64,000 nt of DNA from Methanocaldococcus sp. 28A. Lineage in GTDB: Archaea; AGJL01; Methanococci; Methanococcales; Methanocaldococcaceae. The stretch is taken from NCBI GenBank assembly GCA_049852185.1, contig CP187540.1; one strand, given 5' to 3'. Position numbers and translations under genes: made by a program. Shown piece by piece: positions 3,272 to 27,235 of this stretch; the first letter of the stretch is position 1; each line of letters opens with the position of its first letter. The notes below the pieces were generated by a model. The model did not search any database and was not told the origin of the DNA. It saw only the letters and a program-made list of their open reading frames with translations.

Positions 3272-3580
3272 TTATAAGATTTCAATACCTTCATTTAAAA
3301 TTGTTGAGTAAAAGCTGCTATATTTTAATTTATTAAATTCATTCTCATTTTTTATTATAACATTTATTAAAATACCGTATTTAACCATAATATCAACGAC
3401 CAAATCTATAATATCGTCTAATTCAACATCTCCAATAATTAAAATGTCTATATCACTCTCTTCATTATAATCTCCTCTCGCATAAGAACCAAACAAAATA
3501 ACCTTTTTTATTTTATTTCCAAATTTCTTTTTTAAATTTTTTAAAAAATAGCTTAATGCTTTATCATGCATATTAATCAT
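3272..3580 (-). CDS. Minimal nucleotidyltransferase (MNT antitoxin-like)
   Basis: ILFGSYARGD...SDIDILII (GSx10DxD), about 100 aa, overlaps the upstream HEPN-containing gene. Confidence 0.85.
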   Translation of the reverse strand: MINMHDKALSYFLKNLKKKFGNKIKKVILFGSYARGDYNEESDIDILIIGDVELDDIIDLVVDIMVKYGILINVIIKNENEFNKLKYSSFYSTILNEGIEIL

Positions 3581-4473
3581 CTCTTCAAAAGCTTTTTTAT
3601 AGTATTTAAAAATTCTTCAGCATATTCAATAATTTCTTCAACATCTTCGTTCTTTGGGGAATAAAATACATCATAATCGGATAAAGTTCTTAATTCAAAG
3701 GCCTTTGATAAATATTTTCCATATTTTCTATCAATTAAATTTCCTTTAATAGCAACTTCTCCAAATTTACCAATAACACCACTGTGTTTTTTTGGATTAA
3801 TATTTTTTGATAACAACAACGCTCTTGCAGAATGGAACATACTATAATATGCTCTTGATATTGCATCTCTATATTTTTTGTTCTCAAAAAGTAGATATGC
3901 AGAAGATAATTCTTCCTCAGATAATTCAATCTCTTTATAAATTTCTAAAGTCTTGAAATCTTCTCTCTTTATAATCTCAACACAGTCATATAAACTTTTA
4001 GCAATAAAATCAGCTTCAGTTTTATCATTATTATAAAGAATCCTTATTGTTTTACATCCAACACTTTTCCCGCAAATTATATCGCTCTCAGAATCTCCAA
4101 TCATCCAACTCCTACTAAAGTCAATATTCCATTTTTCCCTGGCTTTTAAAAGCATACCATTTCTTGGTTTTCTGCAGTTACAAGTTCCCTCTAAGTGAGG
4201 GCAGTAAAATATATCATCAATCTCAGGCAACAATTTAAGCATATACTCATGGATAACTTTTAAATCCTCTTCAGTCATAACACCCTTAGCAATTCCCTGC
4301 TGATTAGTTACAACTATCAATATGTAACCCATTTTTTTAAATTCTATCAAAGCCTCTCTAACTTTTGGTAATAATTTAAATTCCTCTATTCTTTTAACAT
4401 AGTCCCCTATTAATCTTTTATTTATGACCCCATCTCTGTCTAAAAATATTGCCTTATACATAATTATCATCAT
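3577..4473 (-). CDS. gmhB: D,D-heptose-1,7-bisphosphate phosphatase GmhB fused to a C-terminal HEPN domain
   Basis: N-terminal HAD motifs FLDRDGVIN, TNQQG, CPH-x4-CNCRKP, MIGD; C-terminal ~125 aa carries AISRAYYSMFH, KHSG, RTLSDY. Confidence 0.8.
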   Translation of the reverse strand: MMIIMYKAIFLDRDGVINKRLIGDYVKRIEEFKLLPKVREALIEFKKMGYILIVVTNQQGIAKGVMTEEDLKVIHEYMLKLLPEIDDIFYCPHLEGTCNCRKPRNGMLLKAREKWNIDFSRSWMIGDSESDIICGKSVGCKTIRILYNNDKTEADFIAKSLYDCVEIIKREDFKTLEIYKEIELSEEELSSAYLLFENKKYRDAISRAYYSMFHSARALLLSKNINPKKHSGVIGKFGEVAIKGNLIDRKYGKYLSKAFELRTLSDYDVFYSPKNEDVEEIIEYAEEFLNTIKKLLKR

Positions 4474-4488
4474 AAAAATAATAATTTT

Positions 4489-5397
4489 TTAGCCAAATAA
4501 CTCATCCAAACTAACTGTTGCAGTTCCAACCTTTCCAACAACAATTGAACTTGCTTTATTTGCTAATTTAACTGCATCAATTAAATCATAACCTTTATCC
4601 AAAGCATAAGCCAAAACAGCAATAAATGTATCCCCAGCTCCAGATACATCATGAACTTCCTTAACTTTTGTAGGAATGTGGTAGATTTCTCCGTTAAGAG
4701 TTATTAACGTTGCTCCTTTTTCACTTCTTGTTATAACAAAGTTTGAATTAAATTCTTCAACCAACTCCAATCCCACTTTTTCCAATTCATCATCTTTGTT
4801 TTCTATCTCTCTTCCAATAATTTGAGAAGCTTCTTTTAGATTTGGTTTTATCAAATAGACATCTTTATAAAATTCCATGTTTTTAGGTTTAGGGTCTACT
4901 AAAATCTTACCTTTAAATTCTTTTTTAATTTTTTCCATAAGTTCCTTTGTAATTAAACCCTTTGCATAATCGGAAATTACCAATATATTTGATTTACTGT
5001 TGAGTTCTTTAATTTTATCTAAAATTTTGTTTGAAATTTCTTCATTTATTGGATAAATTTTTTCATAATCAACTCTAAGAAGTTGTTGATTATATCCAAT
5101 TGCAACAAATCTATGTTTCACTATCGTTGGTCTCCCATCTGATACAAAATAGTAATTAATACCATTTCTATTACATAATTTTTCAATACATTTTCCAAAT
5201 TCATCATTATTAGAAATACTTATTAAAAATACATCATGCTTTAAAGAGGCGATATTATTGGCTACGTTTCCAGCTCCACCAAGTGTATATTTTTCCTCAA
5301 CTACATTCAACACAGGAACAGGAGCTTCGGGGTTTATTCTCTCAACTTTTCCATAGGTGTATTTGTCAAGCATAACATCCCCTAAAACTATTATCAT
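4489..5397 (-). CDS. rfaE1: D-glycero-beta-D-manno-heptose-7-phosphate kinase (RfaE domain I, HldA)
   Basis: GDVMLDKY, RINPEAPVP, GGAGNVA, DVSGAGDT (PfkB family). Confidence 0.9.
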   Translation of the reverse strand: MIIVLGDVMLDKYTYGKVERINPEAPVPVLNVVEEKYTLGGAGNVANNIASLKHDVFLISISNNDEFGKCIEKLCNRNGINYYFVSDGRPTIVKHRFVAIGYNQQLLRVDYEKIYPINEEISNKILDKIKELNSKSNILVISDYAKGLITKELMEKIKKEFKGKILVDPKPKNMEFYKDVYLIKPNLKEASQIIGREIENKDDELEKVGLELVEEFNSNFVITRSEKGATLITLNGEIYHIPTKVKEVHDVSGAGDTFIAVLAYALDKGYDLIDAVKLANKASSIVVGKVGTATVSLDELFG

Positions 5398-5408
5398 GGT
5401 TTCCCTCT

Positions 5409-5900
5409 TTATTTATATTTATCTAAAACCCATTCTATTATATTTGTTGTTGAAAAGCCCTTAATAAGGGGGATTATTTTTATTTCCCCACCATAACTTT
5501 TAACAATCTCTGCCTCTGGCAAATCTTCCTCTTTATAATCCCCACCTTTTACATGGATATCTGGTTTAATGATTTTTATCAATTCTATAGGAGTTTCTTC
5601 ATCAAATGGCACAACAAAATCAACAGCCTTTAGATTATCTAAAACATAAGCTCTCGAGTAGAGAGGAATTATAGGTCTTTTATTTCCTTTTATTTTTTTT
5701 ACTGATTCATCTGAATTTATGCCGACAATTAAAACATCTCCCAATTTTTTTGCCTTATTTAAATACTCAACATGTCCTCTATGAATTATATCAAAACATC
5801 CATTGGTAAAAACTATCTTTAAATTTTGGCTCTTTAACTCTTTAATTATATTCTCTAATAGTTTTCTATCTTTAATTATCATAATATCTCCTATTTCCAA
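5409..5900 (-). CDS. rfaE2: Heptose-1-phosphate nucleotidylyltransferase (RfaE domain II, HldC)
   Basis: FTNGCFDIIHRGH, KGGDY, GFSTT; true start may be the later ATG (MIIKDR). Confidence 0.9.
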   Translation of the reverse strand: MEIGDIMIIKDRKLLENIIKELKSQNLKIVFTNGCFDIIHRGHVEYLNKAKKLGDVLIVGINSDESVKKIKGNKRPIIPLYSRAYVLDNLKAVDFVVPFDEETPIELIKIIKPDIHVKGGDYKEEDLPEAEIVKSYGGEIKIIPLIKGFSTTNIIEWVLDKYK

Positions 5901-5928
5901 AAATATTTGGTTTTTTATTTAAATTTAA

Positions 5929-6486
5929 CTACATAAATAACCTTTTTTCAACTTCTTCACAAATTACATGATAAATTGTTAAATGACATTCTTGTATCCT
6001 TGCTGTGTCATTAGAAGGAACTATTAATGCTAAATCAACAATGTCTTTTAGGTTACCACCACCTTTTCCTAATAAGCCAATAGTATAAATCTTCATTTCT
6101 TTTGCCTTATTAACAGCCCTTATAACGTTCTCAGAATTCCCACTCGTTGATATTCCAATTAAAACATCTCCTTTTTTTCCAAGAGCTTCAACTTGACGTT
6201 CAAAAATCTTTTTAAATCCATAGTCATTTCCAATTGCTGTTAAAATGGAAGTGTCTGTAGTTAAAGCAATTGCAGGCAATCCCTTTCTTTCCAACTTAAA
6301 CCTCCCCACAATCTCAGCGGCAAAGTGTTGAGCATCTGCCGCACTCCCCCCATTCCCACAAATTAAAATTTTATTACCATTTTTCAAAGCCTCTAATATA
6401 ATTTCAATTGCCTTCTTTAAATTTTCCTCATTTTCTTCGATAAATTTTATTTTTACATTTGCGCTTTCTTCAAAATACTTTTTCAT
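5929..6486 (-). CDS. gmhA: Phosphoheptose isomerase
   Basis: [28 protein letters not shown]. Confidence 0.95.
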
Positions 6487-13925: not shown

Positions 13926-16436
13926 ATGAGAATATTGGTAACAGGTGGAGCTGGTTTTATAGGAAGTAACTTTATAAAATATATATTGGATAAACATAAA
14001 GATTGGGAAGTTATAAATTTAGATAAACTAGGATATGGCTCCAATTTGGAGAATTTGAAGGGAATAGACGAGGATAGATATAAATTTATTAAGGGGGATA
14101 TAACTGATTTTGAGTTGATTTCAAAACTTATTAAAGAAGTAGATGCTGCTGTAAATTTCGCAGCAGAGACGCATGTAGATAGAAGTATATCTACTCCTTA
14201 TTCATTCATAGAAAGCAATGTTATTGGAGTCTATACAATATTAGAAGCAATTAGAAGGTATAATCCAGAGGTAAATTTTGTTCATGTAAGTAGTGTGACT
14301 GGGGATACTCCAGTATTGCTAAGGAATAAAGAGACTGGAGAAATATTTTTAGAGAGAATAGATTTCCTCAATGAGGATAATTATCATCTCTATGAAGCGC
14401 TTACGATTGATGAAGACCTTAAAGCTACCTTCATGCCAATTTCGGGTATAGTTAAACACCCTACTGATGAGATTTACGAAATAGAGTATGAAAGTGGAGG
14501 GAGGATTAAAGCTACAGGCTCTCATTCTGTGTTTGTATTCACGGAAGATGGAATAAAAGAAAAATATGTTACCGAGCTGAAAGAAGGGGACTATTTGGTA
14601 ACCTTACTCACTTTCAACAAGAATAATTTCGAATCAAACCACATTCTCAGGATAAAGGATTACATAGATATGAATAAAATCAAAACAAATGGACGCATTA
14701 AGAAGAGCCTAAAAACTAGAGAAAGAATACTGGAAGTTTTAAAAGATAGTCCTAAAACATGGAAAGAACTTGTTGAGAGTTTAGGAAAGTCTGTTTCTCA
14801 GTCGCTTAAAAGTATGGTAAAGGAGGGATTAATTGAGATCGTGAATAGGAAATACAAGATAACAGAGAAGGGTTTAGCTGAATTAAGGAATGGTTTTGAA
14901 GAGACTGCTTATGTGCTTTACAGGAGACAGCTTAATATTCCACAGGAGATTGAGGAAATAGAAGTTACTCCTGAATTAATGTGGCTCTTTGGTTTGTATT
15001 TGGCGGAGGGACATGCCTCCAATACGGAAAAAGAATTCAAAAGAAAGCTAAAAAAAGTTACAATAACATCAAAAGATATTGAGTCGCTCAAAAAAGCAAA
15101 AAAATTGCTAGAAAAATATTTTGGATATAAAAAAGCAGTTATTAGGGAAAAGAAAAATGAAGACACATACCAATTGGAGTTTGGTGGAGAAATTTTGCAT
15201 TCTATTTTCTCAGAGTGGGGAAGCACTTCCGAAACTAAACGTATTCCTTCATGGGTATGGAAACTCTCAAGAGATCATATAGCCAAGATGCTTGAAGGTT
15301 ATGAAGGAGATGCTCATATCAGAAAAGATGGTAGTAGAATATTCACTTCGAAAAATCAAACCCTAATATTTAGTTTAGTATGGTTAACTAGGCTTAAAGG
15401 GATAAACTCAAGGTATGTTAAGAGAGTGTGTAAAAATATGAAAGGGGAATTCCAAAAAAGAGAGGAATATGACTTAGTCATGCACGATTTAGCAGTTTCA
15501 TCTGAAAATTATGAGGAAAATAAGTTAGTAAGGACGCCTCATTCTAAGTGTATCCCTATGGAATTAGTAAAACACCATTTACCTGAGAATATCGTGGCAA
15601 AGTATAATCTCAAAAAGAACAAATTAATTGGAAAAGATATTGCAAAAAGATTGATGAAAGGAAAGAATAAGTATGTTGAATCAGATGTAGGAGTTGCAAA
15701 GGTCAAAAAAATTACACGACTTAACGAAAACTTAATGGTATATGATATTGTAATAGATAAGAATCACAAATTCTTTGGAGGAAATGTGCCAATTCTCCTT
15801 CACAATACTGACGAAGTTTATGGAGATATTGAGGAGGGTTCATTCACTGAAAATGATAGATTGCTACCTTCATCTCCTTATTCTGCAAGTAAAGCTGGTG
15901 GAGATATGCTTGTTTTAGGATGGGCAAGAACATACAACTTAAATGCAAAGATAACAAGATGTTCAAACAATTATGGTCCTTACCAATTCCCAGAAAAATT
16001 GATACCTAAAACGATAATTAGGGCAAATATGGATTTGAAAATACCAATATATGGTAAAGGGGAAAATGTTAGAGATTGGTTATATGTTTTGGATCATTGT
16101 AGTGGAATAGAATTAGTTTTAGAAAAAGGGGAAAGTAGGGAAATTTACAATATAGCTTCAAATCAGGAGAAGATGAATATAGAAGTTGTTAAGATGATTT
16201 TAAATATAATGAATAAATCTGAAGATTTAATAGAGTTTGTTGAAGATAGACCTGGACATGATATAAGATATAGTTTAGATGCTTCAAAAATTAAGGAACT
16301 TGGTTGGAAACCAAAATATAACTTTAAAGATGGTTTAAAAGAAACTGTAAAGTGGTATTTGAATAATGAATGGTGGTGGAAGCCATTAATTAATGATAAA
16401 GTTTTACATCCAACTCCTTGGAAGTTGAAATGGTGA
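13926..16436 (+). CDS. rfbB: dTDP-glucose 4,6-dehydratase, intein-containing (331 aa after splicing)
   Basis: GGAGFIG, AAETHVDRS, VHVS|TDEVYG split by an insertion, YSASK, DRPGHD. Confidence 0.93.
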   Translation: MRILVTGGAGFIGSNFIKYILDKHKDWEVINLDKLGYGSNLENLKGIDEDRYKFIKGDITDFELISKLIKEVDAAVNFAAETHVDRSISTPYSFIESNVIGVYTILEAIRRYNPEVNFVHVSSVTGDTPVLLRNKETGEIFLERIDFLNEDNYHLYEALTIDEDLKATFMPISGIVKHPTDEIYEIEYESGGRIKATGSHSVFVFTEDGIKEKYVTELKEGDYLVTLLTFNKNNFESNHILRIKDYIDMNKIKTNGRIKKSLKTRERILEVLKDSPKTWKELVESLGKSVSQSLKSMVKEGLIEIVNRKYKITEKGLAELRNGFEETAYVLYRRQLNIPQEIEEIEVTPELMWLFGLYLAEGHASNTEKEFKRKLKKVTITSKDIESLKKAKKLLEKYFGYKKAVIREKKNEDTYQLEFGGEILHSIFSEWGSTSETKRIPSWVWKLSRDHIAKMLEGYEGDAHIRKDGSRIFTSKNQTLIFSLVWLTRLKGINSRYVKRVCKNMKGEFQKREEYDLVMHDLAVSSENYEENKLVRTPHSKCIPMELVKHHLPENIVAKYNLKKNKLIGKDIAKRLMKGKNKYVESDVGVAKVKKITRLNENLMVYDIVIDKNHKFFGGNVPILLHNTDEVYGDIEEGSFTENDRLLPSSPYSASKAGGDMLVLGWARTYNLNAKITRCSNNYGPYQFPEKLIPKTIIRANMDLKIPIYGKGENVRDWLYVLDHCSGIELVLEKGESREIYNIASNQEKMNIEVVKMILNIMNKSEDLIEFVEDRPGHDIRYSLDASKIKELGWKPKYNFKDGLKETVKWYLNNEWWWKPLINDKVLHPTPWKLKW
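14292..15806 (+). mobile_element. 505-aa intein with LAGLIDADG homing endonuclease
   Basis: Starts SVTGDT, block B ATGSHSVF, WLFGLYLAEG and MLEGYEGDA blocks, ends VYD...ILLHN followed by +1 Thr. Confidence 0.92.
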
Positions 16437-17955: not shown

Positions 17956-19090
17956 TAGGACTTTTACAAGCATATTTAAATATTTTATTATAACATTTCA
18001 TGATAATCTATTTTTATTAGATATTATAATTTTTCGAAACAAAAAGTTTATTTTGGGGAAAATATGCTAAAAATGTCGAGGACTATCGTTTATATGCTTT
18101 TTATATTACTTTCAGAGATTAATTCGTGTGTAGAGTTATCGAAAACGTTGCGTATTTTCGGAATCGACATATCTCACGATACAATAAATAGAATACTTTG
18201 GGAAGAAGGAATCTTCCCACAAGAAAAGCTTTTTAATTTCGTTAAAGATTTAATCACTCCTGATTATAATATTGTCGTTATAGATGACTTTGTTATAGAT
18301 AAAATTTACTCTAAATCGACTGAATTTGCTTATTATTGTTGGAGTAATCTACATAAACGAGTAATTAAAGGCTTACATATCGTTGATTGCATAATTACAA
18401 ATGGAAAACATATTATTCCAATCGATTTTAGAGTATATGACAGACCAAGAGATGGAAAGACGAAAAATAATTTATGTAGGGAGATAATAAAGTCTTTAGT
18501 GGATAAAGGATTAAATATTAGATATATCTGTTTCGATAGTTGGTATTCAAGTAAAGATAACTTAAAACTTATCGATAGTTTAGGTTTATTCTACCTCTGC
18601 AGAATTAAAAGGAATAGAAAGGTAAAACTCTCCAAAAACAGAGAGTGGGTATCAATCGAAGACATTAAGGAAATTCCTAAGAATGGATTAATCGTTTATC
18701 TACGAAAAGTTGGCTATGTCAGACTCTTCTGCCTTTCCAAAAACGGAAAGGCAAAATATTATATAACTAATAACCTATTTATGAGTTTCGAAGAATTCCA
18801 AGAGGTCAAAAACGCCTCTTGGAGAATCGAGGAATTCCATAGGGGTGTTAAACAGTGCTGTAATACTGGCAATTTCTTCGTTAGAAAAAAATTTCCAATT
18901 TTAGGTCATATCTCCCTTTCTATGAGAGCCTTCTACCTCTTAGAGAAAATTAGAATCGATAAAAATATCAGTTGGTACGAACTTAGAAGAAAACTAAATC
19001 GAATAGCTGTTGGTAATGCCATAATCTCTTTGTGTGAAGAAATTGGTTTATCGTTAATCTAAGTATTTAAATGTGGATGCGAAAGTCCTA
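17956..19090 (+). mobile_element. IS701-family insertion sequence
   Basis: Inverted ends TAGGACTTTTACA / TGCGAAAGTCCTA flank an intact transposase. Confidence 0.75.
18064..19062 (+). CDS. IS701-family DDE transposase
   Basis: VVIDD...DK, FDSWY, WRIEEFHRGVKQ. Confidence 0.85.
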   Translation: MLKMSRTIVYMLFILLSEINSCVELSKTLRIFGIDISHDTINRILWEEGIFPQEKLFNFVKDLITPDYNIVVIDDFVIDKIYSKSTEFAYYCWSNLHKRVIKGLHIVDCIITNGKHIIPIDFRVYDRPRDGKTKNNLCREIIKSLVDKGLNIRYICFDSWYSSKDNLKLIDSLGLFYLCRIKRNRKVKLSKNREWVSIEDIKEIPKNGLIVYLRKVGYVRLFCLSKNGKAKYYITNNLFMSFEEFQEVKNASWRIEEFHRGVKQCCNTGNFFVRKKFPILGHISLSMRAFYLLEKIRIDKNISWYELRRKLNRIAVGNAIISLCEEIGLSLI

Positions 19091-19179: not shown

Positions 19180-19929
19180 TTAATGCATATTCGTAGATAC
19201 TATATAAATTCCCATAAATAAGATTATTAAATTAATAAATCTATTAAGTTTGTCCTGTGGAATATTAGAGTTTACATGAGTTCCAACATAAACTCCCGGA
19301 ATAGTTCCAAGAATTAGTGATAAAGCTAATTTGTAATCAACATTTCCCAAAATTATATGGCTCAAAGCACTGAAAGACGTTAATAAGAGGCCATAGAAAA
19401 TACTTGTTCCAACAACAGACCTTGGTGAAAGTTTTGTGAAATTCGTTAATGCAAGAGTTATTAAAACACCACTACCAATTGATGTAAATTGAACTATCAA
19501 ACCTACTAAAAATCCAAATAACACTAAAACAGAAGAACCAAAACCTATTTTTTTTGCAAAACTTCTTTTCAAATTTATAATGGATGTGATTATTAAAATT
19601 ACACCAAGTATTATTGTTAAAAAATTATTTATCTCACCTCTATCCCCTAACCTTAAAACTATAGAACCAACTATTATAGCTGGTAAACTTCCTAAGAACA
19701 ATTTTAGTGCAATGTTAAAGTTTATATTCCCTTTTTTATTGTGTAAAATTGCCCCTATAGTCTTGGTTACTGCAGCATACAGTAAATCAGTCCCAACTGC
19801 TATGAGTGGTTCCACTCCTAAAAATATTAATAAAGGAGTCATTAAAGTGCCTCCTCCAATTCCAGTCAAACCTACAAGAAATCCAATAACAAATCCAATT
19901 AATATAAAATACAATGACATAAAACCCAC
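19180..19929 (-). CDS. TauE/SafE (TSUP) sulfite/sulfur-compound transporter
   Basis: GLTGIGGG...P repeat, AVGTDL, multiple TM segments; last codons lie in an IS end. Confidence 0.85.
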   Translation of the reverse strand: MGFMSLYFILIGFVIGFLVGLTGIGGGTLMTPLLIFLGVEPLIAVGTDLLYAAVTKTIGAILHNKKGNINFNIALKLFLGSLPAIIVGSIVLRLGDRGEINNFLTIILGVILIITSIINLKRSFAKKIGFGSSVLVLFGFLVGLIVQFTSIGSGVLITLALTNFTKLSPRSVVGTSIFYGLLLTSFSALSHIILGNVDYKLALSLILGTIPGVYVGTHVNSNIPQDKLNRFINLIILFMGIYIVSTNMH

Positions 19930-19930
19930 T

Positions 19931-20464
19931 TTAAAGATAATTTAGTTCCACAGCCTTTTTGATTATTGCTTCAACTTCCTCATCAACACTCATTTTGGAA
20001 CTATCCACTTTAACTTCTGGGTTATCAGGCTCTTCATAAACTCCATCGTAACCAGTTAATCCTTTTATTTCTCCTTTCAATGCCTTAGCATAAAGTCCCT
20101 TTGGGTCTCTCTTAATTCTTTCCTCTAAAGGAGCATAAACATAAACTTCCATAAATCTCCCAATCTCTTTTCTCGCATATTCCCTAACAGATTTATATGG
20201 AGAAATTAGAGAGACTATTGCTATTACACCATTTCTTGATAACAATTTGGCCATGTGAATAACAACTTTATTATGCATTTCTCTTGCCTCTTTACTAAAT
20301 CCCAAATTTGGATATATGGAATTTCTTATTTCATCTCCATCCAAAATCTCAACTCTATAACCCATTTCTTTGAGTTTTTTCTTTAAAGCATTAGCTAATG
20401 TGGTTTTTCCTGCTCCACTTGGACCTGTGAGCCAAATCGTAAAACCTACTTTCATAGTATACAT
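19931..20464 (-). CDS. cysC: Adenylyl-sulfate (APS) kinase
   Basis: WLTGPSGAGKTT, LDGD, RDPKGLY, TG-x-D-x2-YE. Confidence 0.95.
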   Translation of the reverse strand: MYTMKVGFTIWLTGPSGAGKTTLANALKKKLKEMGYRVEILDGDEIRNSIYPNLGFSKEAREMHNKVVIHMAKLLSRNGVIAIVSLISPYKSVREYARKEIGRFMEVYVYAPLEERIKRDPKGLYAKALKGEIKGLTGYDGVYEEPDNPEVKVDSSKMSVDEEVEAIIKKAVELNYL

Positions 20465-21843
20465 CTCCCTTTAAGATTTTTTTCTATCCTAAAGAGCTTT
20501 AAAATCGTAGGTGCAAAGTCGTAAATAGTTGAAGTAATTTGCTTACTATCCTCCATTCCAGGTAAATAAATAGAAAATACACCATACTCAGAATGAACCG
20601 CATCATCAGGCCCTGTGTCATTCTCTAAAAGATATAGGCTTTCATAACCTAAGGTTCCTGCAGCCCTCCAACTTAAATTATCAAAATACACCATCATATC
20701 TGGCTTATCTCCTTTTGTCTTTGGATAAATATCTTCTGGGTAAAACACTTTAGTATCCCATTTTTCTCCATTTGGTCCCCTAATGCCTCTAATAATTTCT
20801 GCTACTTCATCTCTGACTTTATGGTAATTTTCTGGCTTTATTATACCATTTGGCTCTCTTCCCACAACATTGAGGAAGATTCTTGAGTAGTAACCTCCCC
20901 AAGCCCATGCTATTGTATTTCTCCAATCCACATCCAAATCTTCAAATCTCAACTGTTTTCCAGATTTTAAAATCTCAGGATTTTTAATCTTTAATAATCC
21001 TTCCTCAATCAACCACTGGTTTATTGCAAAAGCTCCCTTCATAGCTTTTATTCCATGGTCTGATACAATAATAACAGCAGTTTTATCCAAATCTAAAAGT
21101 TCTAAAGTTTTTCCAATTTCCTTATCAAGAAGTTTGTAATAATCTGGAATAACATTTTTGTAGGGATTATAGTCTCCAGGATATAAATGATGATTTTCAT
21201 CAAAATACTTCCAGAATGCATGATGGACTCTATCCAAACCAATTTCAACAAATTGGAAATAGTCCCAATCTTTTTCTTGAATTAGGTATCTTATAACTTC
21301 AAACCTTTTCTCAGTCATCTCCCAAAGTAATTCTTTTACCTCATCTCTATTGTCCTTCCTAAAAACCACGTCAAATATATACTCTCCAACGAGGTTTTCT
21401 ATTTCACTTTTGAGAGATTTTGGATAAGTGTAATTAACTGATGCGTCAGGGGTTATAAAGCAAGAGACCAAATGTCCTTTAATAGGCTTTGGAGGATAAC
21501 TTGGAGGAACGCCAACTAAGATTGATTTTTTCCCTACTTCCCCTAAATAATCCCAAACTGCTTTTTCTTTAACCATCAAACTGTGAGCAATCCAGATATT
21601 ATTATAAGTTCCTTTCTTTCTATGCCTAAATCCATAAAGCCCTAATTCTCCTGGAGTTTTACCAGTAGCCATTACCATCCAGGCAGGAATAGTTATAGCA
21701 GGAACACAACTTTTCATAGGGCCATATATTGATTTCTCTAAAAGCTTTTTTATGTTTGGTAGTTTATCTAATAACTTATCAAATAAAAGTTCTGGAGGAG
21801 CAGAATCTAAGCCAATAACAAATACTTTTTTTACATTTTCCAT
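20452..21843 (-). CDS. Alkaline phosphatase superfamily (type I phosphodiesterase/nucleotide pyrophosphatase-like) protein
   Basis: VIGLD, PAITIPAW (Thr nucleophile position), DRVHH, SDHG. Confidence 0.8.
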   Translation of the reverse strand: MENVKKVFVIGLDSAPPELLFDKLLDKLPNIKKLLEKSIYGPMKSCVPAITIPAWMVMATGKTPGELGLYGFRHRKKGTYNNIWIAHSLMVKEKAVWDYLGEVGKKSILVGVPPSYPPKPIKGHLVSCFITPDASVNYTYPKSLKSEIENLVGEYIFDVVFRKDNRDEVKELLWEMTEKRFEVIRYLIQEKDWDYFQFVEIGLDRVHHAFWKYFDENHHLYPGDYNPYKNVIPDYYKLLDKEIGKTLELLDLDKTAVIIVSDHGIKAMKGAFAINQWLIEEGLLKIKNPEILKSGKQLRFEDLDVDWRNTIAWAWGGYYSRIFLNVVGREPNGIIKPENYHKVRDEVAEIIRGIRGPNGEKWDTKVFYPEDIYPKTKGDKPDMMVYFDNLSWRAAGTLGYESLYLLENDTGPDDAVHSEYGVFSIYLPGMEDSKQITSTIYDFAPTILKLFRIEKNLKGRCIL

Positions 21844-21847
21844 TATA

Positions 21848-22807
21848 TCACCTTAAATATAAATTTATAATTTCCAAAACATCATCAACATTACTTTTTT
21901 CCAAAATACATCCTAAGACATCCTTCTTCCCACCAGCGTTGTAATTTTTGTGTTTTAATGTTTGAATAAGTTCAGCCATCTTTATTTTGTCAGTTAAATT
22001 AGATGAAATTCTGAAATATATCTGTGCTTTTCCGTTAAAATCTTCATTTACAACTACTGCTCCATCATAACCCATTTCCCAAACAACTTTCCTTGCAACT
22101 TTTGAGATAATGTTAAATTTACTCTTAAATCTAATAAATACGATCCTATTTTTAACTATTATATTTGAAATAGCATCTTCTATTGCATCATTGATTTTTT
22201 CAAGATTCTTGTTCCATTTTTCATACTCTAAAAGTTCTTTTGGTTCTAAATTTAAAATAACTTTCACAGCATTTTCAACTTCATCCCTATCCATTACAAT
22301 ATAATTTGAATCAATCAATTGAACCAATTTTACTGCATCTTCTTTACCAATTCCTTCTAAATTTAGAAATTTTTTAACTTTTGAAATACTAAATGCCTTC
22401 TCTCCAATATCCCCCACAGCTCCAAGTGCAGATAAATAGTTCCAGAAGGAAAAATGGTATGAAACAACAAAAGATGCTGATGGGAAATTTTTACCTTCTA
22501 AAACTGGGTTTATTTGCCTAACTTTTGGATTTTCAATCCTTTTTTGTATGTGATGATCGATGAATATTGTTTCCTTGTTAATATTTTCTACGTCTTGCGG
22601 GAGATTTAAATCTAAGACATAGATTTTTTCTGCCTGTTCAATTTTTTTCCATATTCTTTCATCAAATCTAAACTCACCAATTGGTGGAATTACATTTATA
22701 AAATCCTCTAAATTTAAAGCTTTAACTGTTAAAGCTGCTGAAGTAATTCCATCAGTGTCCCAATGGTGAATTATCAACATATTAACCATCCACAAATGGG
22801 TTTTCAA
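21848..22807 (-). CDS. DHH-family phosphoesterase, probable PAP phosphatase
   Basis: HHWDTDG, VLD, IDHH, AGG; lies in the sat/cysC operon; likely start at MLIIHH. Confidence 0.75.
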   Translation of the reverse strand: MKTHLWMVNMLIIHHWDTDGITSAALTVKALNLEDFINVIPPIGEFRFDERIWKKIEQAEKIYVLDLNLPQDVENINKETIFIDHHIQKRIENPKVRQINPVLEGKNFPSASFVVSYHFSFWNYLSALGAVGDIGEKAFSISKVKKFLNLEGIGKEDAVKLVQLIDSNYIVMDRDEVENAVKVILNLEPKELLEYEKWNKNLEKINDAIEDAISNIIVKNRIVFIRFKSKFNIISKVARKVVWEMGYDGAVVVNEDFNGKAQIYFRISSNLTDKIKMAELIQTLKHKNYNAGGKKDVLGCILEKSNVDDVLEIINLYLR

Positions 22808-23930
22808 AACTCATTATTGTTTCATAAACCTCTTTTCTCATAAAGTATTCTGGAGGTATTTCACCATTAACAATCATATTTCTGATTTTAGTTCCACTGA
22901 AATATTCTCTATCTTCCATTGGGTGAGGACAAATCCTTTCATTTACTATACCTTTACATTTTTTGCAATAGAAGAATTCTTTAAAGAACATTGGTGTTAT
23001 TCCTAAATCTGGGAAGTTTTTAAATATTTCTTGTGCTTCGTAAGGGCCATAATAGTTTCCAACCCCTGCATGGTCTCTTCCAACAATAAAGTGTGTGCAT
23101 CCAAAATTCTTTCTCATTATTGCGTGATGGATAGCTTCTCTTGGCCCAGCATATCTCATCTCATATCTAACCGTTGCCAAAACTGCAGAATCCTTTGGAT
23201 AGTAGTGCTTAAATAATGTTTCATATGCTTTCAAAATAACTTCATCTCTATAATCGCCTTTCTTTTTCTTTCCTAAAACAGGGTTTATAAACAATCCATC
23301 AACAAAGGTTAATGCGGATTTTTGTAAGTATTCATGCCCCAAATGAGGAACATTCCTCGTTTGAAATGCCACAATAGTTTCAAATTTTCTCTCTTTAAAT
23401 AATACTCTTGTTTCTATTGGTCTTAAGGTGTATTTCTCAAAGGTGTTAGGTAATTCATTTAAAAGTCTAATTTCTCCGCCAACAAGATATTCATTCATAT
23501 TATAAACTTTTGCTACTCCAGGATGGTTTATATCTGTAGTTTTAAAGACTTTTTGGGCAAATTCTTTTTTATCATATTTGTAGATATCCTCCACATTCAT
23601 AACAGCTATTGGGATATTTTCATGATATAAAAGGATTTCATCTCCAACATCAAATTTTAAATCTTTCCCTTTTACATCCAAAACTATAGGAATGCTCCAT
23701 GGTAAATCATTAGGTAATCTCATATCATCTAAAACATATTGAAATTCTTCTTCTCTTAAAAACCCTTCAAGTGGGGAGTATATTCCATGTGCAATATTTT
23801 CAATGTCTATTGCAGTTCCTTCCCTAATACTTATTTTATAATATTCATCTTTTTCTTCTAAAATTCTCTCTTTACTTTTCTCAGATAATAATTTTCTAAC
23901 TAATTTTCCCCCATGAGGCTTTGAAACCAC
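22782..23930 (-). CDS. sat: Sulfate adenylyltransferase (ATP sulfurylase)
   Basis: PHGG, QTRNVPHLGH, YAGPREA, VGRDHAG, SGT. Confidence 0.95.
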   Translation of the reverse strand: MVSKPHGGKLVRKLLSEKSKERILEEKDEYYKISIREGTAIDIENIAHGIYSPLEGFLREEEFQYVLDDMRLPNDLPWSIPIVLDVKGKDLKFDVGDEILLYHENIPIAVMNVEDIYKYDKKEFAQKVFKTTDINHPGVAKVYNMNEYLVGGEIRLLNELPNTFEKYTLRPIETRVLFKERKFETIVAFQTRNVPHLGHEYLQKSALTFVDGLFINPVLGKKKKGDYRDEVILKAYETLFKHYYPKDSAVLATVRYEMRYAGPREAIHHAIMRKNFGCTHFIVGRDHAGVGNYYGPYEAQEIFKNFPDLGITPMFFKEFFYCKKCKGIVNERICPHPMEDREYFSGTKIRNMIVNGEIPPEYFMRKEVYETIMSFENPFVDG

Positions 23931-23934
23931 AGTA

Positions 23935-23958
23935 TCACCTTTAATGATATTTAATTAA
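23935..23958 (-). promoter_or_regulatory. Leader motif upstream of sat, shared with the RHH gene
   Basis: TCACCTTTAATGATATTTAATTAA is repeated at 24221-24253. Confidence 0.4.
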
Positions 23959-23988
23959 GTTTAATTAAAATAAAAAATAATAAATTTG

Positions 23989-24216
23989 CTAATCTAAATA
24001 TCCTAATGCTCTTAATCTCTCTTTAACTTTCTCCTCTTCCTCCTCACTAAATACTTCTTCTTTTTCTTTCTCCTCTAAACTTGCTAAAACCTCTCTTAAA
24101 ACGTAGGTTACATAATCTGAGACAGATGTAAATCCAGTCCCTTCAATTCTTTTTTTAATCTTTTCATAAAGTTGGATTGGTATTGAGACTGTTGTATATT
24201 TTCTTTCATCTGACAT
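23989..24216 (-). CDS. Ribbon-helix-helix (CopG-like) protein with acidic linker and C-terminal LRALGY motif
   Basis: YTTVSIP...LYEKI...FTSVSDYVTYVLRE, then EEEEEKVKERLRALGYLD. Confidence 0.8.
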   Translation of the reverse strand: MSDERKYTTVSIPIQLYEKIKKRIEGTGFTSVSDYVTYVLREVLASLEEKEKEEVFSEEEEEKVKERLRALGYLD

Positions 24217-24220
24217 CTTT

Positions 24221-24253
24221 TCACCTTAATGATATTTAATGATATTTAATTAA
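24221..24253 (-). promoter_or_regulatory. Leader motif upstream of the RHH gene with tandem GATATTTAAT
   Basis: Same motif as 23935-23958 with one extra 10-bp unit. Confidence 0.4.
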
Positions 24254-24326
24254 ATTGCATTAGGTATATATATCTTACTCTGATAAATATAAATACCCTA
24301 TTTTTTAGTAGAATAAAAAATAGAGA

Positions 24327-25871
24327 TTGAGAGGTTGGGTAATATTGAGCGAAGTTAATAAAGTCCTACATGGGATTGCGAAAGGAGCTGGAATCGTATT
24401 CTTAGGAACAATTATTTCAATGTTCTTTGGATTCTTAAGTGTAGTAATTATAGCAAGGTATTTCTCTACTGCTGAATATGGAATATACAACATGGCTTGG
24501 ACTATTCTGAATATAGCCATGGTAATTGCTATGCTTGGATTTCCTAATTCTCTTCCAAGAGAAATTGCATATTACAAAGAAAAAGAACCTTTAAAAATAG
24601 GATGTCTAATATCAACTGCATTGACAATTATATTATTAGTAAGCTTATCTGTTACAGCATTTCTGATTTTTGGATCAATTTATATTGCTCAGATATTCAA
24701 TGAAGAAATGCTAATTTATACTTTGAAGATAATGTCACTTGCACTCCCTTTTTTAGCTTTAACAGGAACTTTTGTAGCTATATCTCAAGGGTTTGGAAGA
24801 GTTAGAGAAAAGGTTTATTTTCAAAATATATTATACCCTATACTATGGTTTTCTTTTTTAGGACTTGTAGTTATTATGAAATTAAACTTTTATTACATTT
24901 TTGTATCATATGTAATAGCTCAAGTTATTACATTCTTTGCATTAGCTATAGATGTATTTAAAAAAAGATTATTTAAGATTGATATTATAGATTTAGAATT
25001 AGGGAAGGAATTAATAAAATTATCTATTCCTCTGATGTTTACGGGAATTGCTGGATTTATAATGACATGGACAGATACATTGATGCTTGGATTCTATAAA
25101 ACTTCAGAAGCTGTTGGTTTATACAATGCTGCAGCTTCATTAGCAAAGCTATTGCCTATAGTTTTATATTCTGCTGGTTTCATCTACCCTCCTTTAGCTA
25201 CGGCTCTCTATGCTCAAGGAAAAATTAATAAATTAAAGAGGGTTTATCAAGTATTAACAAAGTGGATGTTTCTTGCAACTTTACCTTTGTTTATTTTAAT
25301 GTTTCTCTTCCCAGAGGCTACATTAGGATTTTTCTTTGGAGAAAAATATTTAGAAGCTAGTAGTATTCTTCAGATCCTCGCCTTGGGTTTTATGTTCCAC
25401 ACACTCTTGGGTTTAAACGGGTTAAGTTTGATTGTTATTAAAGAGAGTAATTTTGTAATGTATTCAACTTTGATATCTGCAGTTATAAATGTGTTTTTGA
25501 ATGTTCTACTGATACAGAGTTATGGTATCAAAGGAGCTGCTATCGCTACAGCAATTTCATACTTTACAACAAATGTTTTAAATTCTCTCAGGCTTTATCA
25601 GAAGGCTAAAGTTCATCCATTTAGTAGAAATTATATCAAAGTTGTTGTTATTAGTCTTATTATGTCAGGATTTGTTTGGATTTTACATTTTAAAATGTTA
25701 AACATATTGTATGCAAGCCTTGTTTTAATAGCATTTCTGATAGTTTACTTATTATTATTATTACTAAGCAAAAGTATTGATAAAGAAGATATTGATCTAT
25801 TATTAGCTATAGAGAGAAAAATTGGGATTAATTTAAGTATTTTAAAAAAAGTTTTACAAAGGTTTATTTAA
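24327..25871 (+). CDS. Wzx-type oligosaccharide flippase
   Basis: Polytopic MOP-family protein with EYGIY, TDTLMLG, VGLYNAA, YGIKGAAIAT. Confidence 0.88.
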   Translation: MRGWVILSEVNKVLHGIAKGAGIVFLGTIISMFFGFLSVVIIARYFSTAEYGIYNMAWTILNIAMVIAMLGFPNSLPREIAYYKEKEPLKIGCLISTALTIILLVSLSVTAFLIFGSIYIAQIFNEEMLIYTLKIMSLALPFLALTGTFVAISQGFGRVREKVYFQNILYPILWFSFLGLVVIMKLNFYYIFVSYVIAQVITFFALAIDVFKKRLFKIDIIDLELGKELIKLSIPLMFTGIAGFIMTWTDTLMLGFYKTSEAVGLYNAAASLAKLLPIVLYSAGFIYPPLATALYAQGKINKLKRVYQVLTKWMFLATLPLFILMFLFPEATLGFFFGEKYLEASSILQILALGFMFHTLLGLNGLSLIVIKESNFVMYSTLISAVINVFLNVLLIQSYGIKGAAIATAISYFTTNVLNSLRLYQKAKVHPFSRNYIKVVVISLIMSGFVWILHFKMLNILYASLVLIAFLIVYLLLLLLSKSIDKEDIDLLLAIERKIGINLSILKKVLQRFI

Positions 25872-27235
25872 ATCTTGATTTTTGGAACTTTTGCTACTGT
25901 TGCGGTTTTCAGGAACTTCATAACTTCTTTTTTCATATGTTTTACAATATCCTCTGAAACCTCTATTTTAGGATTGTATGAAATTATTTCTTCGAACTTC
26001 CATTCAGTCACGTTGAAAATTCCTTTAAAGTTTTTGTAATATACTGCTATACGATATTTTTCAAGTTGTTCTATGTTTTTCTTTTCTTCTTCAGTTAATA
26101 ATTCACCAACATTTACATGTATTCCATAAGACTCTGCAAATACTGTATTAGAATATAACATACTGTCATCAGTTGATTTGTTTTCTATTAAATTTAATAT
26201 AAATGGTTTTAACATTGTTAGGCTAATATACTTTGAGTTATTCTCTATGATTTCAAGGTTAAGTCCTTTAGGATATTTTATTAATAATGGTATTCTCAAA
26301 ACTTCATCATATAAAAAAGTTCCATGACCTATTCTTCCATGTTCACCTATTAGTTGTCCATGATCACTAGTCACAATAATAAGAGAGTTATCAAAGAGAT
26401 TATGTTCTTTTAAAATCTTCATTAATTCTAAGATTCTTCCGGTTACATATTTAACTTCTTCTAAGTATTTTTGCTTCCACATTTGAACTGTTTTAGGGTC
26501 AAGTCTATTAGTTTTTAAGTTTTCTACGCTTTTATCATTTTCATTTGGAAAATAGGGCTCATGTACTTCCATTAAGTTTATAAAGATATATTTTGGATTT
26601 TTATTTGAAGTAAACCTTAAGTATTTTATAATTGTTTTTATTAAATTTTTAGCACCTTTATCTTTTGGCCATTTTTCACCAAAAGGCCAATACTTAGTGA
26701 TAATTACATTTAATCCTGCCCTTATTAATAACATACATTGTCTAGAAAATAAAAATGTTTTAAGAATGTCAAACTTATTTTTTAAGTTATATTCTTGTTT
26801 TAATTTTTCTATGCATTTTAGGTCATCATTAGATAACCATGGAAAAGAAATAATGTCATAAAAATTATTAAATCCTATGAATCCAAAGGATGGCCTTATA
26901 TATGGATTAGCACTGAATAAAGAAGTTTCAAATCCCAATTCTAACAATTGTACACTTAAAATTTCTCTATTTTTCTTAAGTTTAACTCCAAAATCTTTTC
27001 TGTTTTTAGTTTCATGAGCTCCATGAAATGCTGGATATAAGCCCGTAAAAATTGATGCATGGCTTGGGGTTGTCCATGGAGCGGGTGCTATTGCATTATT
27101 ATAGGATACAAATCCTATTTTTGTTAGTGCATCTTCCAATGGTTTGGCAAAATCTTTTCTCATAGTATCTACAATGATAATGATTACATTTGGTAAATTG
27201 TCCATTCTACACACCCTTGTTTTAAACGTGATCAA
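25868..27235 (-). CDS. Sulfatase-like hydrolase/transferase with Thr at the formylglycine position
   Basis: PNVIIIIVDTMR, APWTTPSHASIFTG, HEPY, TSDHG, GEHG. Confidence 0.8.
   Translation of the reverse strand: MITFKTRVCRMDNLPNVIIIIVDTMRKDFAKPLEDALTKIGFVSYNNAIAPAPWTTPSHASIFTGLYPAFHGAHETKNRKDFGVKLKKNREILSVQLLELGFETSLFSANPYIRPSFGFIGFNNFYDIISFPWLSNDDLKCIEKLKQEYNLKNKFDILKTFLFSRQCMLLIRAGLNVIITKYWPFGEKWPKDKGAKNLIKTIIKYLRFTSNKNPKYIFINLMEVHEPYFPNENDKSVENLKTNRLDPKTVQMWKQKYLEEVKYVTGRILELMKILKEHNLFDNSLIIVTSDHGQLIGEHGRIGHGTFLYDEVLRIPLLIKYPKGLNLEIIENNSKYISLTMLKPFILNLIENKSTDDSMLYSNTVFAESYGIHVNVGELLTEEEKKNIEQLEKYRIAVYYKNFKGIFNVTEWKFEEIISYNPKIEVSEDIVKHMKKEVMKFLKTATVAKVPKIKI

Follow-up and report, generated by a model that had tools for sequence, protein, structure and literature searches.

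The first gene of a sulfate-activation operon in the window, the whole 64,000-nucleotide stretch of Methanocaldococcus sp. 28A DNA analysed here, encodes a 75-aa ribbon-helix-helix (RHH) protein, RHH-LGY, that ends in an LxxLGY tail. Judged by the range of proteins that carry it, this tail is a portable module of sulfation-pathway proteins, and co-folding predicts that it docks into the active-site cleft of NPP463, a tail-less enzyme encoded by the same operon. We see about an even chance that RHH-LGY is an autorepressor whose tail serves as an active-site-docking sensor arm on NPP463, by the logic of the CymR-CysK pair. The operon was already known; the tail, its predicted docking, the candidate operator and the link to the haloarchaeal proteins Agl30 and Agl31 are apparently new, none of them having been found in print in the open literature, covered mostly as listings and beginnings of abstracts, where nothing on this regulator turned up apart from the copG remark cited below. 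The genes of the operon and its surroundings, and the tail itself, are as follows.

19180..19929, minus strand: TauE/SafE transporter (Pfam)
19931..20464, minus strand: cysC, APS kinase (TIGR00455 above cut-off)
20452..21843, minus strand: NPP463, tail-less AlkP/NPP-fold enzyme, 463 aa (PF01663, E 1e-47)
21848..22807, minus strand: DHH/DHHA1 pAp phosphatase (Pfam)
22782..23930, minus strand: sat, ATP sulfurylase (NF003166 above cut-off)
23989..24216, minus strand: RHH-LGY protein, 75 aa, first gene of the operon (ORF translation, homologues, predicted structure)
23992..24051, minus strand: LGY tail F56-D75, with helix 58-71 followed by G72-Y73-L74-D75; Y73 codon at 23998-24000
24327..25871, plus strand: Wzx-type flippase, divergent from the RHH gene (Pfam)
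25868..27235, minus strand: SULF455, sulfatase-fold protein, 455 aa (PF00884, E 7.5e-24)

The gene order RHH-sat-DHH-NPP463-cysC-TauE is that of the Thermococcales sulfate-activation cluster (PYCH_17520-17560 type). In the accessible text of PMC8268124 and PMC4463584, the clusters of P. yayanosii (PYCH_17520-17560) and T. onnurineus (TON_1704-1707) contain the same genes in the same order, a putative copG factor, the lead gene in P. yayanosii, ‘potentially regulates’ the pathway, and TON_1705 is assigned as a pyrophosphatase, the P. yayanosii phosphodiesterase being thought to remove PPi (PMC8268124). The tail, operator boxes, an RHH-enzyme contact and a test of the regulator were not found in the accessible text of these two papers. 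The DHH/DHHA1 pAp phosphatase family is characterised in PMC8268124 and PMC10322725, as far as their accessible text goes. The divergent flippase, SULF455 and a GT2 form a glycan locus around the cluster, and immediately beyond the left edge of the window the same glycan region encodes a canonical PF13469 sulfotransferase of 311 aa (G000:C1:541903-542838). Because the cluster sits in a glycan region that also encodes this sulfotransferase, the PAPS made here probably serves glycan sulfation; the sulfotransferase would be a plain PAPS consumer and alone could account for PAPS use. An IS4/ISC1217-like DDE transposase (18064-19062, plus strand) directly follows the PAPS operon, which is consistent with a mobile cassette, and a cassette of 90-99% identity is shared by 6 of the 40 class genomes. 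Decaying or partly deleted copies at L219 (G141), L230 (G091), L231 (G120), L233 (G092) and L234 (G087) point to frequent loss of the operon.

The initial annotation had described a 75-aa RHH protein with an LGY tail and two nearby AlkP-superfamily enzymes without one, and this was confirmed. RHH-LGY (ORF 23989-24216, minus strand) ends in FSEEEEEKVKERLRALGYLD, NPP463 ends in LKGRCIL, exactly at the G-R-x-L segment beyond which its tailed homologues continue, and the C-terminus of SULF455 is Lys-rich, Tyr-less and without LGY. RHH-LGY consists of an N-terminal ribbon-helix-helix at about K6-L48, an acidic linker and the C-terminal tail. Evidence for the RHH label is weak but concordant: the Pfam RHH_1 match (E 0.04, 14.3 bits) falls below the cut-off of 20.5, the top Foldseek matches are mostly RHH proteins (NikR/Arc/ParD/MazE) although all at E>0.001, the monomer model forms helices 14-24 and 32-53 but not the strand, and source names and atlas clusters (named CopG at 0.95) agree with the label. 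PDB sequence searches with the protein, its alignment and the tail profile returned nothing significant. The family comprises 2019 homologues out of 2024 candidates, many of them 80-97% identical across distant archaea, and K65, L68, L71, G72 and Y73 are invariant in an alignment of 48 sequences. A search of the host genome with the tail profile gave one significant match. At L041, L047, L225, L226, L252 and L254-L258, two paralogous RHH-LGY genes lie adjacent to each other or bracket the operon; they might form heterodimers.

Upstream of the RHH gene and of sat, the following elements were recognised.

23942..23967, no strand assigned: three further boxes between the RHH stop and the sat start, second candidate operator
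24227..24262, no strand assigned: four tandem 10-bp boxes with core TAAT(T/G)A, candidate operator (repeat tests, 15-mer counts)
~24265-24273: TATA-like run, upstream of the four-box array (by eye)

The 15-mer TTAATGATATTTAAT occurs three times in 1.56 Mb, each time flanking the RHH gene, and the three-box array before sat was also present in the five class relatives fetched. An unbiased test detected period-10 repeats upstream of RHH homologues at 47 of 80 loci (shuffles 1.0; other periods 0-2). A double box was found at 72 of these 80 loci (shuffle mean 1.2, maximum 4), but the box pattern had been derived from those very loci, so 47/80 is the fair count. From these repeats, the tandem boxes are likely the operator of the RHH protein, and RHH-LGY likely represses its own operon through them. 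MetJ/Arc/CopG/NikR repressors and RHH antitoxins combine the RHH fold with tandem operator boxes before their own gene and a C-terminal extension that binds an effector or partner, an arrangement that the putative RHH protein of this operon would resemble; here, the boxes have a 10-bp period, the extension is a module common to pathway enzymes, and no toxin is involved, the neighbours of RHH-LGY being sulfate-activation enzymes instead of the adjacent toxin of type II toxin-antitoxin systems. Triple boxes also occur at a third site (G000:C1:1508414), which overlaps the end of a gene and was taken as chance. A sigma-70 promoter scan, a model unsuited to archaea, stayed at chance level.

An acidic helix with L-x-x-L-G-Y after a G-R-x-L segment had been described in the initial annotation as common at the C-terminus of sulfatase-like and phosphodiesterase-like proteins, and 23 of the 150 best representative NPP463 homologues, fragments included, indeed carry the tail in cis, as G-[RK]-x-L, linker, acidic helix and L-x-x-L-G-Y. 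In the AlphaFold model of one cis-tailed homologue, the linker is disordered (pLDDT 53) and the tail ordered (87-88). In AlkP-TPR-sulfotransferase fusions the tail separates the AlkP domain from the TPR domain, in 92 of 93 full-length proteins by a looser pattern; a strict pattern placed the motif after the AlkP domain in 74 of 105 fusions, compared with 0.25% of shuffles. CysD and CysD-like proteins close with the tail as well, where the canonical KKEGYF lies (canonical CysD terminates in a related K-x-E-G-Y-F, as at L008). The tail further follows CysC's own last helix in some CysC proteins (L195, L229) and terminates the CysC-NPP fusion P0154. Other fusions (the fusion set being P0137, P0154, P0180 and P0271) join Sat to NPP, a nucleotidyltransferase to NPP (P0180) and a sulfotransferase to a small AlkP. 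Tail-less AlkP genes lie beside tail-bearing CysC at L195 and L229, and beside a tail-bearing CysD-like protein at L033, L038, L050, L080, L207, L225, L226 and the haloarchaeal L265-L267, where the AlkP is about 450 aa long. The tail profile matched in 56 of 151 genomes of another phylum. No tail family was found in Pfam, with 0 of 33 members over the cut-off; PG_binding_2 matched the tail weakly.

CysD-type proteins ending in RLRxLGY (L033, L038, L050, L072, L080, L207, L225, L226) adjoin a small AlkP of 230-260 aa, with no cysC seen nearby, and those ending in KKEGYF (L008, L009, L023, L026) accompany DHH, cysC and a P-loop sulfotransferase. Inteins with LAGLIDADG domains split the CysD genes at L072:4726-6801 and L080:1966-3993.

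The same motif was recognised in Agl30 (VNG1056C) and Agl31 (VNG1057C) of Halobacterium salinarum, AlkP-fold proteins with genetic evidence for a role in N-glycan sulfation, whose cloning primers in PMC11980604 translate to the ends HLEDLGYL and LEELGYT, respectively; the VNG1063H primer gives KELGYIE. Agl30/31 thus resemble the proteins of the window in having an AlkP/sulfatase fold within a glycosylation cluster (PMC11980604, accessible text), but carry the tail in cis, whereas the window's candidates are tail-less. Both remained active with C-terminal tags (PMC11980604). The accessible text of that paper names no sulfate donor (0 occurrences of PAPS), and a discussion of the tail was not found there. 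Agl30/31 were the only archaeal glycan sulfotransferases found described in the open literature. A shared arm would link the repressor, the sulfate-activating enzymes and Agl30/31-type transferases.

NPP463 retains its metal ligands and Thr nucleophile (D13, T51, D204, H208, D262, H263, H417). T51 aligns with the nucleophilic threonine of the T-F-P-N-H motif of Xac NPP, and G71/F72 align opposite H-N of its HGIVHN motif, the Asn of which we take to be catalytic. NPP463 is 71-86% identical to orthologues in the class centred on a Thermococcus genome, and this identity together with synteny suggests that it is the orthologue of TON_1705/PYCH_17550. For PPi, TON_1705 has a kcat of 2.1/s and a Km of 18.8 uM, and Ton1914 a kcat of ~3e4/s (table in PMC9653972, accessible part).

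The initial annotation had proposed co-folding the RHH protein with the product of 20452-21843, and docking was predicted: residues 44-75 of RHH-LGY with NPP463 and two Zn gave an ipSAE of 0.82 (0.81/0.85/0.82), and the best of three controls 0.02. The ipSAE mark was reached by 116 of 157 solved pairs and 2 of 215 mismatched pairs, counts that apply here only roughly because our own alignments and Zn were used. Contact agreement between runs was at least 94% and partner pLDDT at least 69. On NPP463, the predicted interface comprises residues 50-52 (with T51), 71-73, 129-136, 158-163, 205, 208 and 315-318. The tail helix face F56/V64/L68/L71 is predicted to pack against I85/P132/F72, R67 to meet D158, and G72-Y73-L74 to lie at G71/F72/R73, all three of which Y73 touches; the pair Y73-T51 is absent from the listed contacts, though T51 lies within the interface. 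Interface residues G71, F72, R73, P132, D158, R205 and H208 were 100% conserved in 19 RHH-operon enzymes, and the interface is conserved in all three groups, RHH-linked, cis-tailed and other tail-less enzymes. Since the enzyme alignment included 16 cis-tailed rows, the model may show a family-level groove instead of the use of it by this RHH protein. Memory of a like complex is unlikely because the nearest solved folds are NPPs of only 11-15% identity, and a phmmer search of the PDB with NPP463 gave no match.

In the autorepressor model, transcription would be blocked by RHH dimers arrayed on the boxes that directly follow the TATA element, and the tail, a copy of the pathway arm, would dock in the NPP463 cleft and so report the state of the enzyme to the promoter. 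Repression would be gated by this docking, at other loci with the sulfotransferase or the small AlkP as the partner in place of NPP463. Within this model, it is roughly a toss-up whether the signal would be O-sulfation of Tyr73 from PAPS through Thr51, a sulfated repressor meaning that activated sulfate is plentiful; alternatively, substrate or product would merely displace the plug. The precedent comes from Bacillus subtilis and E. coli, where, in the accessible text of PMC12895370, repressor and upstream enzyme share a type of C-terminal peptide that enters the partner's active site (CymR-CysK, CysE-CysK), and DNA binding is stabilised by the CymR-CysK complex, itself modulated by a metabolite of the pathway. 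Here, in contrast, the regulator is an RHH protein and the predicted partner an AlkP-fold metalloenzyme, an analogy and not homology, and the peptide, a helix of 20 residues, contains an invariant Tyr and ends in GYLD, not in Ile. As the tail also occurs internally in fusions and tagged Agl30/31 were still active, no free C-terminal Ile is involved. If docking alone holds, this would be a second case, independently evolved, in which an enzyme gates the repressor of a sulfur pathway by means of a peptide in its active site; the family counts about 2000 protein clusters and has a predicted operator.

The distribution of the genes was compared with this model. RHH and the NPP463 orthologue were found in the same 6 of 40 genomes of the class. 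Among 100 genomes of the other class, 58 had both, 5 only RHH and 1 only NPP, with 63 RHH matches at E<=1e-16 and 59 NPP matches at E<1e-100 and after 4 genomes with only weak RHH matches had been dropped. The operon of the single NPP-only genome is decaying. Among the RHH-only genomes, the operon includes a sulfotransferase in one, a small AlkP accompanies a tail-bearing CysD in two, one has only a distant AlkP, and in one the contig is cut. At the 51 RHH loci with at least 6 kb downstream, cysC was present in 46 and NPP463 in 22, and this more frequent company of cysC counts against the autorepressor-docking model. Across 57 RHH loci, NPP463 alone occurred at 23, a P-loop sulfotransferase alone at 20, a small AlkP at 3, none at 11 (one of which, L072, has a small AlkP that the query missed) and both at 0, NPP463 being missing from 34. 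The exchanged sulfotransferase is a ~190-aa P-loop protein (PF00685/PF13469), long forms of which are fused to AlkP and the tail; it was found elsewhere in 7 of 10 genomes whose locus had neither, and in 0 of 5 NPP463 genomes. One RHH genome without NPP463 in its locus, G052, also gave no sulfotransferase match with this query. Genomes with RHH loci lacking NPP463 had no orthologue in 5 of 5 tested, and 2 have distant paralogues. On a CysC tree of 56 rows, the mutual exclusivity of NPP463 and sulfotransferase comes down to no more than 2 changes. The idea that NPP463 serves RHH-NPP-cysC operons as a non-canonical ATP sulfurylase was rejected, since sat lies elsewhere in 4 of 5 such genomes; CysD-family matches in those genomes were weak.

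The proposal of the initial annotation that the tail is supplied in trans to complete the enzyme stood in part. The RHH tail is the same module as the cis tails, and the co-fold places it in the NPP463 cleft. Against completion in trans stand the pyrophosphatase kinetics of TON_1705, the many RHH loci without NPP463, the presence of RHH-LGY beside three cis-tailed transferases at L269, and a survey of 78 complete, apparently bacterial metagenome homologues of NPP463, 44 cis-tailed and 34 tail-less. Within loci of at most 6 kb per side, an RHH gene was near 0 of 44 cis-tailed homologues, in agreement with the suggestion that the tail is in cis where the RHH gene is absent, but near only 3 of 34 tail-less ones; the other 31 had no RHH, and 29 of the 34 had no tail-bearing ORF at all, 5 having one. 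Tail-less enzymes thus occur without RHH, one half of what was to speak against the proposal, yet the interaction itself is predicted. The presence of RHH as the cause of Tyr-less enzyme ends was likewise weakened by L269. Tail-less NPP463 homologues also lie in bacterial ketosynthase/ACP clusters (L160-L191), many of which also encode a Sat-CysC fusion and, downstream, an AlkP of 535 aa with the tail in cis; the gene content suggests that these clusters make sulfated lipids.

SULF455 contains W-T-T-P-S-H, with a Thr nucleophile, in place of the C/S-x-P-x-R signature of formylglycine sulfatases, and most of its 120 homologues have T-x-P-x-H. By analogy with the proteins described in PMC11980604, it is a candidate Agl30/31-like glycan sulfotransferase. 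In RHH genomes, the C-terminus of glycan-locus AlkP enzymes is often a basic helix without Tyr, e.g. EDEKLKKAIKNLKLKGKI, that has the hydrophobic spacing of the LGY tail (L104, L106-L109, L116, L209, L210, L216, L220, L222, L231); it is possibly a variant docking helix.

A rather unlikely alternative makes RHH-LGY an obligatory carrier in trans: NPP463 would load sulfate on Tyr73, and the RHH protein would deliver it to Tyr-less glycan transferases such as SULF455, whose basic ends would recruit the acidic linker. In keeping with this, 119 of 120 SULF455 homologues lack the LGY tail, 116 of 120 have a net-positive C-terminus and P0447 bears an RHH-like tail in cis, RHH is present in all 23 of the 100 other-class genomes with a close SULF455 homologue, and RHH-LGY is the only tail-bearer of its host genome, the sole ORF with an LGY-type end among 3501. 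Acetyl-Tyr shuttling by the C-terminal peptide of PatA offers a precedent (PMC12148441, accessible text). However, the need for PAPS made by the same cassette explains the SULF455 link just as well, and RHH-LGY is retained at L269 where no Tyr is missing, as the transferases there have their own tails. Moreover, repressors are normally scarce, which suits bulk glycan sulfation poorly.

Within the autorepressor reading, the tail tyrosine may have a chemical role. This Tyr is present in 119/120 and 82/82 RHH proteins, 23/23 cis tails and 92/92 fusion motifs, a total of one Phe among 317 tails in sets that overlap and are related; the like position in CysC's own last helix holds Tyr in 21 of 59 by a rough pattern. 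The tail thus has an invariant Tyr in a terminal motif, as in PatA-type shuttles. In PatA/PatB and DltX-type systems, a group travels from one active site to another on the invariant Tyr of a short C-terminal motif, according to the accessible text of PMC12148441; those systems differ in that the group is acyl and not sulfuryl, the folds are MBOAT/SGNH, no transcription factor is involved and the shuttle was experimentally shown, whereas here it is proposed only (PMC12148441). The CysD-like tail, by an alignment that extends up to that point, falls where APS/PAPS reductases carry their C-terminal tail. The tail motif of those reductases has a sulfite-bearing Cys. Canonical CysD ends in K-x-E-G-Y-F, so the tail Tyr is also kept without any known relay. 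Further points in favour of Tyr chemistry are that catalytically degenerate homologues keep the tail, that none of 5 haloarchaeal genomes has an APS kinase over the cut-off, and that long forms of the P-loop sulfotransferase are fused to AlkP and the tail. Counting against Tyr chemistry are the pyrophosphatase activity of TON_1705, the nucleotidyltransferase-NPP fusion P0180 and the two-event swap of NPP463 and sulfotransferase; that activity and that fusion fit a pyrophosphatase.

Tyr invariance, the sulfotransferase exclusivity and the Agl30/31 tails lend circumstantial support to a Tyr-sulfate carrier, and we regard covalent sulfation of Tyr73 as plausible but doubtful. The broader scheme, put forward tentatively, is that the LxxLGY helix may be a sulfuryl-carrier arm: CysD-like proteins, the P-loop sulfotransferase or NPP463 would load the Tyr, Agl30/31-type enzymes would pass the sulfate to glycans, and sulfation of the Tyr in the RHH copy would switch the operon. 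If so, a tyrosine-sulfate relay would work even without PAPS in haloarchaea lacking APS kinase, a transcription factor would be controlled by tyrosine sulfation, and NPP463/TON_1705, although annotated as a pyrophosphatase, would act as a sulfotransferase. A tyrosine that carries sulfate would be categorically new, both as group-transfer chemistry and as a regulatory modification.

It is improbable that the tail binds another partner, such as APS kinase, a small ligand like PAPS, or neighbouring RHH dimers, and that the docking model reflects only the cis arrangement of the homologues. The presence of cysC in 46 of 51 loci, the resemblance of CysC's own last helix to the tail, the commonness of L-x-x-L-G-Y as a helix-cap pattern (the weak PG_binding_2 matches) and the tandem boxes, which imply dimer-dimer contacts, speak for such a partner. 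On the other hand, RHH loci without cysC exist (L033, L038, L225, L226), APS kinase exceeded the cut-off in 0 of 5 haloarchaeal genomes tested although tails abound there, the tail follows CysC's own helix in L195 and L229, and the docking controls were clean. The loci without cysC and the haloarchaeal tails also weaken CysC as a universal tail partner. About as improbable is a structural lid, in which the tail would do no more than complete NPP463 or activate it, the enzyme pulling ATP sulfurylase in the role of a pyrophosphatase (or PAPS/pAp hydrolase), with neither covalent chemistry nor DNA feedback: the predicted docking over the cleft, the kcat of TON_1705, so far below that of Ton1914 as if a part were missing (PMC9653972, accessible part), and the Sat-NPP and nucleotidyltransferase-NPP fusions would fit, but a lid would leave unexplained the invariant tail at the 20 of 57 RHH loci with a P-loop sulfotransferase in place of NPP463, with no orthologue in 5 of 5 such genomes, and the finding that homologues with the tail in cis include catalytically degenerate ones: 12 of 36 (one of them a fragment), compared with 2 of 49 among the tail-less.

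Two further features of the region were noted by eye. An 836-aa dTDP-glucose 4,6-dehydratase-like ORF (13926-16436, plus strand) contains a large insertion that starts with S-V-T-G-D-T and ends in ...LLHN before TDEVYG, and by its sequence looks like an intein with a homing endonuclease. Genes resembling the ADP-heptose pathway (GmhB, HldE halves, GmhA), unusual in an archaeon, lie at 3577-6486 on the minus strand, and an epimerase and a heptosyltransferase-like ORF lie left of the window.
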